Positions 40,664 to 43,902 of a stretch of 64,000 bases of DNA are shown here, piece after piece; the stretch's first letter is position 1; every line of letters begins with the position of its first letter. The stretch is from Candidatus Heimdallarchaeota archaeon (GTDB lineage: Archaea > Asgardarchaeota > Heimdallarchaeia > Heimdallarchaeales > Heimdallarchaeaceae), in NCBI GenBank assembly GCA_016840095.1, contig JAEOSZ010000031.1, positions 64,001 to 128,000 on the forward strand, read 5' to 3'. The notes under the pieces were generated by a model. That model worked only from the letters and a program-made list of their open reading frames with translations, was not told the DNA's origin and did no database searches. The position numbers and the translations under genes are program-made.

Positions 40664-41500
40664 CTATTCTATTAACATTGTATAGTCAAAATTGGTAACT
40701 GAATGGGTTAATGCTCCAGAAGATATTAGGTCTACGCCTTCTAAAGCATATGAACTGAGATTTTCAAGATTTATATTACCTGATAGTTCAATTAATGAGT
40801 CGTTTTTGATTGACTTAACCTTAGGAATTGTTTTCCTTGCTAGTTCGGGTGAAAAATTATCTAACATAATTATATCTGCCCCAGCATTTGCTGCTTCCAA
40901 AGCTTGATCTTCATTTTGAACTTCAACTTCAATCTTTTTGCTAAAGCTTGTCTCACTTTTAGCTTTTTGAATAGCTTCTGTTAACGATCTAAAGCTTCTA
41001 AGATGGTTTTCTTTCAAAAGAACATTGTCCGATAAATTAAATCTGTGAGTATCCCCTCCTCCAATAACTACAGCATATTTATCGTATTTACCCAAACCAG
41101 GAACTACTTTTCTAGTAGCACAAATTCTAAGACTTGGATTGGTTTTTTGAGCAATTTCAGCCATCTTAGAAGTTTGAGTTGCAATTCCTGAAAGTCTTCC
41201 AAGTATATTAAGAGAAACTCTTTCAGCTTGTAGAAGACTGAGTATATCTCCTTTAACAATTGCAACAGCTGTTTTCGGTGAGACACTTTCTCCTTCATTT
41301 ACTAGTATTTCACACTCTGCACCTAAGAATTCAAAAATGCGTTTAACAAAAAGGAGACCTGCAACAATACCTGCTTGTTTAGTATAGATTTTACCTTCAG
41401 CCTTTTTACTTGGCAACAAAGATGTTGTTACATCCCAATAAGGAATATCTTCCTCAATCCATTTTTTAATGTCTTCATCAACTAAAACTAAGGGGATCAT
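40664..41500 (-). CDS. nadC: nicotinate-nucleotide pyrophosphorylase (quinolinate phosphoribosyltransferase)
   Basis: ED...DVTT, ERVSLN, TRK, HRFNLSD, KENH, EVEV, IMLDN, SGNI, SSGALTHS. Confidence 0.97.
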   Translation of the reverse strand: MIPLVLVDEDIKKWIEEDIPYWDVTTSLLPSKKAEGKIYTKQAGIVAGLLFVKRIFEFLGAECEILVNEGESVSPKTAVAIVKGDILSLLQAERVSLNILGRLSGIATQTSKMAEIAQKTNPSLRICATRKVVPGLGKYDKYAVVIGGGDTHRFNLSDNVLLKENHLRSFRSLTEAIQKAKSETSFSKKIEVEVQNEDQALEAANAGADIIMLDNFSPELARKTIPKVKSIKNDSLIELSGNINLENLSSYALEGVDLISSGALTHSVTNFDYTMLIE

Positions 41501-41518
41501 CTGTTTTTGACTCTCTTC

Positions 41519-42544
41519 TTAATATTTTAGCATATTGTTTACTGCTCTAAAAGCCTTTTTACGAATTTCTTCATCTAGTTCGATAACATTATCATCAGTA
41601 GGTTTTTCCAGAGCTTTCCAGGTAGCAAAAAGATCATTTCTTTTCATACTTATACAGATCATTTTACTATCTTCAAACTGAACATCAGGAAATTCAATTT
41701 TCATACGATCTATGAAACCTTGTTCAGTTAGAAACAATACTTTATCACCCTTAGAAGCTTTGGCAGCATAACGATGCATGTCACCAGTTCCACCGGCATA
41801 ATCAACAGTTTCTATGATTTCTGGTCTGCATTCAAAATGAGCAAAAGTTTTAGTTTCTTTATCTTGAATAAGTCTTTCTAATCTTTTCATAGTGAGTGCG
41901 TGATGAGTTCTACAAAAACCATGCCATGTGATAATGTTCTTTCCTGTCAATTTTGCTAGATTGTGTCCCATATTTTCATCAGGGATAAAGATAATTGTAT
42001 CCTCTTCTAAGCTTTCAATGATTCTGCGAGCATTTGCTGATGTACAACAAATATCTGATTCAGCTTTAACATCTGCATTAGTGTTTACATAGCATACAAC
42101 TGGAGCACCAGGATTTTCATCCTTTAGTTTCTTGACATCTTCTCCGGTAATTGAATCTGCTAAAGTACAATCTCTCCCTCTTGCTGGAACAAGAACTAAC
42201 TTTTCTGGATTGAGTATCTTTACAGACTCAGCCATAAAATCAACACCACAGAACAAGATTCGTTTTTCTGGAATTTCAGTTGCTTTTTTAGCAAGAGCTA
42301 ACGAATCACCTACAATATCAGCAATTCCGAAAACTATATCTGCTGTTTGATAAGAATGTGCTAAGATCTTGAATCCTTTCTCCTTCTTTAATTGGTTAAT
42401 CCTGTAAGTAAATGGAGCAATTGATTCACAGGCACTTCTAGTCCAGCCTAGAGGATTCAATTTAACATATAATCTCTCAACTTCTTCCTCTAGTAAACCG
42501 AACTCCTCTCTTCGTATTTCAGGAGTTTCTTCTACAACTACCAT
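41519..42544 (-). CDS. nadA: quinolinate synthase
   Basis: LAHSYQ, GDSL, FCGVDFMAE, CTLAD, YVNT, CCTSANA, PDENMG, GFC..H, HFEC, C..MK. Confidence 0.96.
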   Translation of the reverse strand: MVVVEETPEIRREEFGLLEEEVERLYVKLNPLGWTRSACESIAPFTYRINQLKKEKGFKILAHSYQTADIVFGIADIVGDSLALAKKATEIPEKRILFCGVDFMAESVKILNPEKLVLVPARGRDCTLADSITGEDVKKLKDENPGAPVVCYVNTNADVKAESDICCTSANARRIIESLEEDTIIFIPDENMGHNLAKLTGKNIITWHGFCRTHHALTMKRLERLIQDKETKTFAHFECRPEIIETVDYAGGTGDMHRYAAKASKGDKVLFLTEQGFIDRMKIEFPDVQFEDSKMICISMKRNDLFATWKALEKPTDDNVIELDEEIRKKAFRAVNNMLKY

Positions 42545-42660
42545 CTCAACCGGACTACTCTTTTAAGAATCGCATTTAAAGACTGTTCGTTTAAGGACAA
42601 AATTGAACAATGATTTACACTATAAACCTTAAAACCTTTGAAAAATTGACTCTTAAGACA

Positions 42661-42683
42661 TTTGCTAGTATACTATAAGCAAA
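42661..42683. promoter_or_regulatory. candidate operator in the nadA / NADK-HTH divergent intergenic region
   Basis: TTTGCT-N11-AGCAAA inverted repeat overlapping the perfect 10-bp palindrome TAGTATACTA (42666-42675). Confidence 0.35.
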
Positions 42684-42855
42684 AATTGCCTATTCTTTTC
42701 GGAGAAAACGACAAAGGAAGTAAGTTTGGATGTCTCTAAATACGATATGTAAAATTCATATGTAGGAGAAATTCTTCATTTTCACTGTTTTCTATGGTAA
42801 AACTATAAATAAATATGAGATATTATTATTAAGCTAAGTATATGTTGATGGAATA

Positions 42856-43902
42856 ATGATAATAGCTCTATATATTGCAAATGAATCCCTCTCAAAAAAA
42901 TTTGCAAATACTATAAAGGATACACTGGTAGAATTAGATGCAGAAGTAGAAATTATCGAATTTGAAGATGAGATTCTGAATGAAGAAAACTGGGAAAATC
43001 TGATGAATGATTTTTCTAATCAAAAAGCTAACTGCATTATTTCTGTAGGTGATACTGGAACATTTCTTAGAGCAATCTTTCTATCAAGATCTTCGATTCC
43101 AGTGGTAGCTGCATCATCTGAAAGTGTGAGTTTTTTCACTGAAATAAGTCCGATTAACATGAGTTATACTTTAGCTAGTATACTTAATCGGAAATATGAT
43201 GTTGACAATTATCATAGAGTAGTCTTCCAAGATTCAGGAAACAATATTCCAATTCCAGCTTTAAATGAAATCGCAATTTTTCCAAAAGATTCTGCACTAC
43301 TAATGAACTATACTTTGATTATTGATAAGAATCAACTCTATCGAGGAAGAGCAGATGGTCTTATTGTATCAACATCTTTGGGAAGCACAGGTTATGCTCT
43401 ATCTAGTGGGGGACCGATTGCATTTGGAAATCCAGATGTGCTGATAATTGTTCCAGTTAACCCTCTAAATAAAGAACACATTCCATTAGTTGTTCCAATT
43501 GATTCGGAAATTAAATTGGTGAATTTGCGCTCTAGATCACCTCTTGAAGCTATTATTGATGGACAAATGAGGATAGGGATTGATGAAGAAATATTAGTTA
43601 GAAAATCAGCTTCTACAGCTAGAATTATTAGATTCCAAGCAAAGAAAAACATACTTGCTAAATTGAGAAACAGACTAGTTGAATTGGATCTTCGAACTTT
43701 GGAGCGTGTCCCTCCTTCAGCAAAATACATCTTTAAATTGCTTTTAACAGAAGGGGAAATGACTCAAAAGGACTTAATTGAGAGCACAGGATTACCAAAT
43801 AGAACAGTTCGTAATGCACTTTCTATACTCAAGGAAAAAGGTGTGATTAATCAAAGACCTCACTTGAGAGATGCTAGACAATCAATCTACTTTGTTGAAT
43901 GA
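42856..43902 (+). CDS. NAD kinase-like domain (degenerate GGDG) fused to a C-terminal MarR-like winged HTH
   Basis: ALNEI, ADGLIVSTSLGSTGYALSSGGP and IDGQ are intact; GGDGT appears as GDTGT; C-terminal PPSAK...GEMTQKDL...LPNRTVRNAL..L...DARQSIY. Confidence 0.9.
   Translation: MIIALYIANESLSKKFANTIKDTLVELDAEVEIIEFEDEILNEENWENLMNDFSNQKANCIISVGDTGTFLRAIFLSRSSIPVVAASSESVSFFTEISPINMSYTLASILNRKYDVDNYHRVVFQDSGNNIPIPALNEIAIFPKDSALLMNYTLIIDKNQLYRGRADGLIVSTSLGSTGYALSSGGPIAFGNPDVLIIVPVNPLNKEHIPLVVPIDSEIKLVNLRSRSPLEAIIDGQMRIGIDEEILVRKSASTARIIRFQAKKNILAKLRNRLVELDLRTLERVPPSAKYIFKLLLTEGEMTQKDLIESTGLPNRTVRNALSILKEKGVINQRPHLRDARQSIYFVE

Follow-up and report, generated by a model that had tools for sequence, protein, structure and literature searches.

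Why should a gene that reads as a nicotinamide adenine dinucleotide (NAD) kinase stand back to back with genes for de novo NAD synthesis, and why should its product end in a DNA-binding domain? The question is raised by a 64,000-nucleotide stretch of the genome of a Candidatus Heimdallarchaeota archaeon (GenBank assembly GCA_016840095.1, contig JAEOSZ010000031.1, positions 64,001 to 128,000), here called the window, in which nadA and nadC are faced by a divergently transcribed gene for a protein of 348 amino acids (aa) that joins an NAD kinase (NADK) fold to a winged helix-turn-helix (wHTH) at the C-terminus. A first-pass annotation, made from the sequence and its open reading frames (ORFs), had proposed that the kinase fold is kept as a sensor and coupled to the wHTH to control de novo NAD synthesis. 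Its account of the ORFs, domains and motifs of this divergent fusion agrees exactly with Pfam, NCBIfam and our alignment, and its suggestion of a sensory role gains support from a separate kinase, from synteny and from a conserved DNA motif. We consider it probable that the 348-aa protein arose from a spare, catalytically dead NAD kinase and controls nadA-nadC transcription in response to NAD(P); its binding to DNA, the identity of its ligand and the sign of its regulation are what we infer.

The spacer between nadA and the fusion gene occupies 42545-42855, which is the 311 bp previously claimed for it, and on the other side nadC lies downstream of nadA after a gap of 18 bp, so arranged that the two are presumably on one transcript. 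The window is AT-rich (GC content ∼33%), and close homologues of the fusion protein carry the names Candidatus Heimdallarchaeaceae and Ca. Heimdallarchaeum in their annotations.

Pfam finds in the protein the NAD_kinase N-domain (residues 35-114, 34.9 bits) and NAD_kinase_C (residues 136-259, 71.8 bits), PF01513 and PF20143 both exceeding their cut-offs, and thus a two-domain NAD kinase fold. HTH_24 is matched at residues 292-331 with 23.8 bits (cut-off 21.9), and the matches to TrmB, MarR_2 and HTH_5 are below their cut-offs. Homology to the Archaeoglobus fulgidus NAD kinase 1SUW extends over ∼260 residues (E = 2e-24). An AlphaFold2 (AF2) model built with 60 homologues has a predicted local distance difference test score (pLDDT) of 87.7 and consists of two kinase domains, a linker helix and a winged helix; its top Protein Data Bank (PDB) matches by Foldseek are all NAD kinases, with template-modelling scores by target of 0.80-0.87, and a DNA-binding domain is present in none of the PDB matches listed. 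NAD kinases have been solved as oligomers. When two copies were predicted together with NAD, the homodimer scored 0.44 against 0.00 for the best control, a pass that may reflect likeness to those solved oligomers and so perhaps gives no independent support; of proteins solved as one-chain pairs 20 of 30 attain this mark, and of those solved as single chains 1 of 23 does. Contact agreement between runs was at least 53%, the pLDDT of the partner at least 82, and the interface is symmetric and formed by residues 156-217 of the kinase C-domain.

The NAD site of the C-domain has been kept. The motifs ALNEI, DGLIVSTSLGSTGYALSSGGP and IIDGQ preserve the NE, DG...GSTGY..SSGGP and DG signatures, and in an alignment of 60 fusion proteins N137 (of NE), D167-G168, G176-S-T178, Y180, S183, G186 and D235-G236 are invariant or nearly so; we take these residues to be the contacts to the NAD substrate in solved NAD kinases (1Z0S, 2I29, 1Y3I). 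Throughout the alignment the NAD-site motifs are strongly conserved and the phosphoryl-transfer motifs are free to vary, which is the pattern expected of a domain that only binds. The recognition helix, LPxRTVRxAL, is nearly invariant as well, and this fits a single DNA motif or half-site shared by the family.

The alternative that survives these observations best is that the protein does regulate nadA but responds to something other than NAD or NADP, such as nicotinic acid adenine dinucleotide (NaAD), nicotinamide or nicotinic acid mononucleotide (NMN/NaMN), ADP-ribose, ATP or polyphosphate (polyP), or to no small molecule. The ATP/phosphate side of the pocket has been rebuilt, and Y152 and R239 are invariant residues specific to the family that differ from canonical kinases, so the ancestral substrates need not bind in the ancestral way. 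However, the near invariance of the NAD-contact motifs in all 60 members would be difficult to account for had no selection for a dinucleotide-like ligand acted, and we regard a different effector as unlikely.

The catalytic motifs of the window's protein are altered. GGDGT reads G65-D66-T67-G68-T69, with threonine at the position of the catalytic aspartate, and the second glycine-rich loop, GINxGxLGFL, is replaced by A85-A-S-S-E-S-V-S-F-F94. All 18 NAD kinase models of NCBIfam are missed, the best score being 146.5 bits against the 326 of NF002984, and the NAD kinase equivalog cut-offs are all at least 211 bits. Each of the 18 Heimdallarchaeaceae-type sequences in the alignment has T, A or S at the aspartate position and never D; judging from these motifs, catalysis is lost in the Heimdallarchaeaceae form. 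There are four NADK-superfamily genes in this genome. Among them is the separate GGDG-intact enzyme that the first-pass annotation had proposed to look for elsewhere, a canonical NAD kinase of 284 aa on contig C152 with GGDGT and GINCGKVGFL, and the fusion protein is accordingly not the kinase of the cell. Two further proteins, of 371 and 388 aa, have GGDGT and apparently belong to another NADK subfamily.

The description of the protein as a pseudo-NAD-kinase therefore stands for the Heimdallarchaeaceae form but not for the family, since the aspartate position holds D in 40 of the 60 fusion proteins (T in 16, and A and S in 2 each, with the first glycine invariant) and P0046, a fusion member with the wHTH, has a complete GGDGT along with GVNCGTIGFL. 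P0046 may be a surviving bifunctional kinase/regulator, and from the alignment the family looks like a series that runs from an intact kinase-regulator to a pseudo-enzyme, with the window's protein at the decayed end. Near relatives of P0046, P0053 and P0045, have GSDST or GDDAT instead.

These same members bear on a second alternative, that the window's protein is a trigger enzyme in the manner of RbkR, BirA or NadR, both an active NAD kinase and a DNA-binding protein. It retains the full two-domain kinase fold, and the aspartate in 40 of 60 members and the intact motifs of P0046 make an active ancestor likely, and perhaps some active members. In the window's protein and all 18 close relatives, however, T, A or S replaces the aspartate, the paired glycines are disrupted and the second glycine-rich loop is missing; together with the canonical kinase in the genome and scores of at most 146 bits against equivalog cut-offs of at least 211, this makes a trigger enzyme very improbable here.

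Database annotations and our own genome search show the fusion family to be widely distributed among archaea. At E ≤ 0.001 there are some 2,500 matching proteins (90% clusters), many of them ordinary kinases, and the full-length fusions of 320-365 aa include ones labelled Heimdallarchaeota, Vulcanisaeta, Woesearchaeota, Parvarchaeota and Thermoprotei. We also used a profile of the 114 C-terminal positions, which run from the last part of the kinase through the linker and the wHTH. About half of its best 150 matches in a library at 50% identity are full-length fusions, and the remainder are stand-alone wHTH proteins of 70-125 aa. Run on 301 genomes of Asgard archaea, the window's own phylum, it finds the full fusion in most of the 28 genomes of the window's family and also in families f11, f13, f19, f20, f24 and f28; in the sister families f2-f7, of the same order and class, it matched stand-alone wHTH proteins only and no fusion. 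We note that stand-alone proteins closely resembling the regulator's DNA-binding domain are common in Asgard genomes (E ∼1e-14 to 1e-21), including families where the fusion was not found, and that the profile has seven matches in this genome, one of which is the regulator itself.

The synteny with nad genes extends beyond one genome, to the Heimdallarchaeaceae at large, to at least three other Asgard families and to two further contigs. We fetched 20 Asgard loci with 20 kb of context each, and in 14 of them nadA is adjacent to and divergent from the fusion gene (Heimdallarchaeaceae genera g1-g3 and families f19, f11 and f28). Ca. H. aukensis has the same arrangement, with an aspartate dehydrogenase gene (nadX) a few genes off, and on the contigs of P0062 and P0089, which are of metagenome or marine origin and whose fusion proteins have 34-36% identity, nadA-nadC-nadX is divergent from the fusion gene. 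At L046, L054 and L067 nadA is not adjacent, and the neighbour is a gene of 420-454 aa resembling quinolinate or nicotinate phosphoribosyltransferase (QRPTase/NAPRTase). At L068, where the protein is annotated as Parvarchaeota, the fusion lies beside a salvage cluster of a second NAD_kinase_C protein, nicotinamide mononucleotide adenylyltransferase (NMNAT), a phosphoribosyltransferase (PRTase), a nicotinamidase-like protein (PncA) and NadE. The fusion is thus linked to three kinds of NAD gene across lineages at 32-40% protein identity.

Side-by-side reading of the spacers between nadA and the fusion gene drew attention to a 13-bp palindrome, GGCAA-N3-TTGCC, of which the window has a 9/10 match, AGCAAAAATTGCC, whose centre lies upstream of both start codons, at 140 bp from the nadA ATG and 172 bp from that of the regulator. 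An unbiased count was made of all inverted repeats with arms of 4 or 5 bases and spacers of 0-7 in 15 dereplicated intergenic spacers, with 200 shuffles. GCAA-N3-TTGC ranks first, occurring in 11 of the 15, where the shuffle maximum for any pattern is 6 and usually 3; the longer GGCAA-N3-TTGCC occurs in 8 of the 15 (shuffle maximum 2). A match of at least 9/10 is present in 15 of 17 nadA-facing spacers, with per-locus shuffle p ≤ 0.011. We take these counts as consistent patterns and not as probabilities.

The position of the palindrome is informative. Some two dozen loci of the Heimdallarchaeaceae place its centre 131-141 bp from the nadA ATG, a near-fixed spacing, while the distance to the regulator ATG varies from 153 to 408 bp. 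At L044 the regulator gene has moved several kb off and the site is still found 197 bp upstream of nadA, and at L067 a 9/10 site is located 28 bp upstream of the PRTase-like gene. Other Asgard families have a pair of sites separated by 29-30 bp, of which the imperfect one abuts the region of the nadA TATA box and transcription factor B recognition element (BRE). As a negative control we examined ∼800 bp around the nadA start in 20 genomes of Heimdallarchaeia families f2, f4, f5, f6 and f7, in which no fusion was detected; 9/10 was reached in none of the 20, and the best match, 8, was seen in four. Motif discovery upstream of nadA, as the first-pass annotation had recommended, thus gives a palindrome that tracks nadA and is weaker where the fusion was not found. 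On this comparison the site is an element that belongs to nadA.

A possible degenerate second site in the window, GGACAAAATTGAA, is centred 57 bp upstream of the nadA ATG beside the BRE/TATA region, and is the positional counterpart both of GGCCAAAATTGCA (8/10) in the congeners L028 and L031 and of the nadA-proximal site in other Asgard families.

The first-pass annotation had singled out a different palindrome in the spacer, TTTGCT-N11-AGCAAA. It is present as described, but it does not hold as an operator: its left arm and inner palindrome are changed in five relatives in which the protein is ∼90% identical, the exact pattern is missing from all 55 other related loci, and its arms do not recur in the unbiased count of inverted repeats. 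Only the right arm, AGCAAA, has been kept, as it forms the left half of the GGCAA-N3-TTGCC element.

Putative TATA boxes can be read on both sides of the spacer. That of nadA, CTTTAAAT on the nadA strand, is centred ∼33 bp upstream of the ATG and implies a near-leaderless transcript. A 10/10 match to GGCAA-N3-TTGCC is found nowhere in this genome; there are 35 sites at 9/10, nearly all within coding regions, and that of nadA is the only one linked to NAD. A wider regulon here was considered and rejected, as no good site precedes the other NAD genes or the SdhA-like genes. With no convincing site before other NAD genes, the regulon may be just nadA-nadC, and this is the regulon we predict for this genome, perhaps together with autoregulation.

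That the gene order is incidental, the protein being a divergent kinase paralogue or a regulator unrelated to NAD, could appeal to Vulcanisaeta (L009) and L048, where no NAD gene adjoins the fusion, but this is scarcely credible given that the fusion is linked to NAD genes of three kinds in lineages whose proteins share 32-40% identity, that the palindrome stays with nadA when the regulator moves, and that no comparable palindrome match occurs in the sister families where the fusion was not found.

Several observations nevertheless weigh against the protein being an NAD(P)-sensing regulator of nadA-nadC acting through this site. The strong site precedes the putative nadA TATA box by ∼105 bp, and the proximal one matches at just 6/10. 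Of the nadA-facing loci, L069 is without a site and L043 reaches 8/10 at most, and no NAD genes or sites were found within 8 kb of the Vulcanisaeta fusions, L009 included. In this genome the sequences upstream of the NAPRTase-like gene (contig C102), NadE (C43), the PncA-like gene (C8) and the canonical NADK (C152) contain nothing better than 8/10. The motif was seen first in the same spacers that were later scored, with partial controls from the Heimdallarchaeaceae, the set of genomes negative for the fusion and the unbiased count, and the counts overstate the statistics since related genomes are not independent samples. Finally, nadA and nadC are present but an iminoaspartate-forming enzyme is not detected. 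The absence of nadB and nadX from the locus had been remarked upon already, and it extends further: nadX (PF01958) was not found across the whole assembly, which is 89% complete, and the two best matches to the nadB model TIGR00551 in the genome are SdhA/FrdA. Either the gene for this step is in the unassembled part, or the first step is supplied another way. As a separate observation, Heimdallarchaeaceae genera g3 and g4 retain nadX beside the locus (L041:4708-5493, L042:14697-15482 and L044:18319-19095).

The scheme we favour for an NAD(P)-sensing regulator is that a spare NAD kinase lost catalysis and became a transcription factor for NAD biosynthesis. It would probably work as a dimer joined through its kinase C-domains, and the two winged helices would read GGCAA-N3-TTGCC, a site at constant distance upstream of the nadA-nadC promoter. 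The dinucleotide pocket that has been kept (NE, DG, GSTGY..SSGGP and DG) would bind NAD+ or NADP(H) and alter the affinity for DNA, and de novo NAD synthesis would thereby track the pyridine-nucleotide level of the cell. We lean somewhat towards an activator switched off by the end product, and away from a classical repressor, because the sites are upstream of the putative TATA boxes and not over them; among characterised archaeal regulators, a site upstream of the TATA box suits an activator better than a repressor. Taken together, the protein would be the first described archaeal transcription factor for NAD biosynthesis, the product of an ancestral bifunctional kinase/regulator like P0046 that decayed repeatedly to an NAD(P) sensor, activating nadA from upstream of the core promoter until switched off by the end product, in a family spread through Asgard archaea and some DPANN and Thermoproteota annotations; we hold this combined account to be evenly poised between right and wrong. 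Coordinates of the features discussed are collected in Table 1.

Table 1. Features of the nadA-nadC locus and of the divergently encoded 348-aa protein. Positions are those of the window, or residues of the protein where so marked.
Feature	Position	Strand	Basis or remark
nadC, quinolinate phosphoribosyltransferase, 278 aa	40664-41500	-	NCBIfam TIGR00078, 310 bits
nadA, quinolinate synthase, 341 aa	41519-42544	-	NadA, 322 bits; predicted regulated gene
Putative nadA TATA box, CTTTAAAT	42574-42581	-	Read from sequence; block conserved in relatives
Possible degenerate second site, GGACAAAATTGAA, 6/10	42595-42607	.	Weak alone; conserved in close relatives only
Palindrome of the first-pass annotation, TTTGCT-N11-AGCAAA	42661-42683	.	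Inner TAGTATACTA at 42666-42675; present, not conserved
Conserved operator candidate, AGCAAAAATTGCC, 9/10 match to GGCAA-N3-TTGCC	42678-42690	.	Spacer comparison
Putative regulator TATA box, CTATAAATAAATA	42803-42815	+	∼48 bp upstream of ATG; conserved in relatives
NAD-kinase-like protein with C-terminal wHTH, 348 aa; candidate NAD regulator	42856-43902	+	Pfam, NCBIfam, AF2, Foldseek
NADK N-domain	residues ∼1-130		GDTGT at 65-69
NADK C-domain	residues ∼131-260		
Linker helix	residues 266-281		Lower confidence in AF2 model
wHTH	residues 287-347		Three helices and two-strand beta wing (AF2 model)
Recognition helix	residues 315-327		RTVRNAL

The surroundings of the locus have some features of their own. 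A 230-aa Ras/Roc-like small GTPase is encoded at 43995-44687 (+), 93 bp 3' of the regulator gene, and is found also in the congener L045; further along are two small ORFs without a family and then a 243-aa serine recombinase with a Resolvase domain (45626-46357, +). A protein of 839 aa (36610-39129, +) adjoins an M42 peptidase and the nad genes throughout the Heimdallarchaeaceae at 33-59% identity; it has a large N-terminal domain, and its C-terminal part, judged by eye, resembles the ATPase region of histidine kinases. In the Asgard loci outside the Heimdall group an ORF of ∼710-730 aa is always located 3' of the regulator (L049:10329-12527; L050-L053, L055-L058 and L060). At L049, the one scanned, this ORF encodes a metallo-beta-lactamase/beta-CASP protein, and after it comes a 677-aa protein with an Arf/Roc GTPase domain, in whose place the other loci have an ORF of 625-657 aa; this conserved neighbourhood has no evident link to NAD. 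The composition of the window shifts sharply at 62001-64000 (GC 0.306, GC skew -0.216, AT skew -0.268), compared with values elsewhere that are mostly within ∼0.15 of zero.

We found no account of the control of NAD synthesis in archaea; NadR, NiaR, NrtR and NadQ, the regulators known so far, are bacterial. The locus provides a concrete set of candidates in the form of a protein, a 13-bp operator and target genes. The NAD kinase fold would join the few enzyme folds that are known to have been recruited as sensors, and the graded series from intact to pseudo-enzyme should be useful for asking how trigger enzymes turn into pure sensors. Hundreds of genes labelled 'NAD(+)/NADH kinase' in archaeal metagenome-assembled genomes are probably mis-annotated, and metabolic reconstructions in which they stand for the NADP-forming step are possibly wrong. 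A specific NAD(P)-responsive DNA-binding protein is also a possible scaffold for a biosensor.

The known systems can be compared in turn. NadR, NiaR, NadQ and Rex resemble the proposed regulator in that they control nadA, nadB or nadC or respond to NAD(H). Their sensor domains are NMNAT and ribosylnicotinamide kinase (RNK) in NadR, 3H in NiaR, a Nudix-like domain in NadQ and a Rossmann domain in Rex, and none of the four is, to our knowledge, a described nadA regulator in Archaea. Neither NMNAT/RNK, 3H, Nudix nor Rossmann sensor domains are among the Pfam and NCBIfam matches of the fusion protein. We found no description of an archaeal NAD regulator of NADK-like or wHTH type in the full-text literature, subscription journals lying outside the search, and the papers on NrtR (PMC2330246) and RbkR (PMC5397151) mention no NADK-wHTH regulator.

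By descent the closest relative is NadK/PpnK itself (EC 2.7.1.23; A. fulgidus 1SUW/1Z0S, M. tuberculosis 1U0T/1Y3H), to which the protein is homologous, with the NAD-site motifs of the C-domain intact and the predicted dimer formed by the same domain; it differs in having GDTGT for GGDGT, in the loss of GINxGxLGFL, in the added linker helix and wHTH and in falling short of the equivalog cut-offs. NrtR, a Nudix-related bacterial NAD regulator that senses ADP-ribose and was discovered by comparative genomics (PMC2330246), is similar in using a decayed enzyme domain of NAD metabolism to sense a nucleotide, in its C-terminal wHTH and in controlling genes of NAD synthesis and salvage. Unlike the fusion protein, which has an NADK fold and no Nudix match, NrtR is bacterial, has the Nudix fold and recognises another operator. 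The riboflavin kinase/wHTH regulator RbkR (Rodionova et al. 2017, PMC5397151) is likewise an archaeal regulator of a cofactor pathway in which a kinase of that pathway is fused to a winged HTH, was likewise predicted from synteny and conserved palindromes, and has a nucleotide of the pathway as its effector. The two folds are unrelated and share no sequence relationship, and whereas RbkR has an N-terminal wHTH and an active kinase that is usually the only RibK of the genome, the fusion protein has a C-terminal wHTH, destroyed motifs and a separate kinase elsewhere in the genome. RbkR and NrtR are thus its closest functional analogues, and by descent it is an NAD kinase that fails the catalytic motifs. 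The family appears to be a new and previously undescribed one of familiar design, in which a sensor derived from an enzyme is joined to a wHTH and set to work on the cofactor pathway of that same enzyme.

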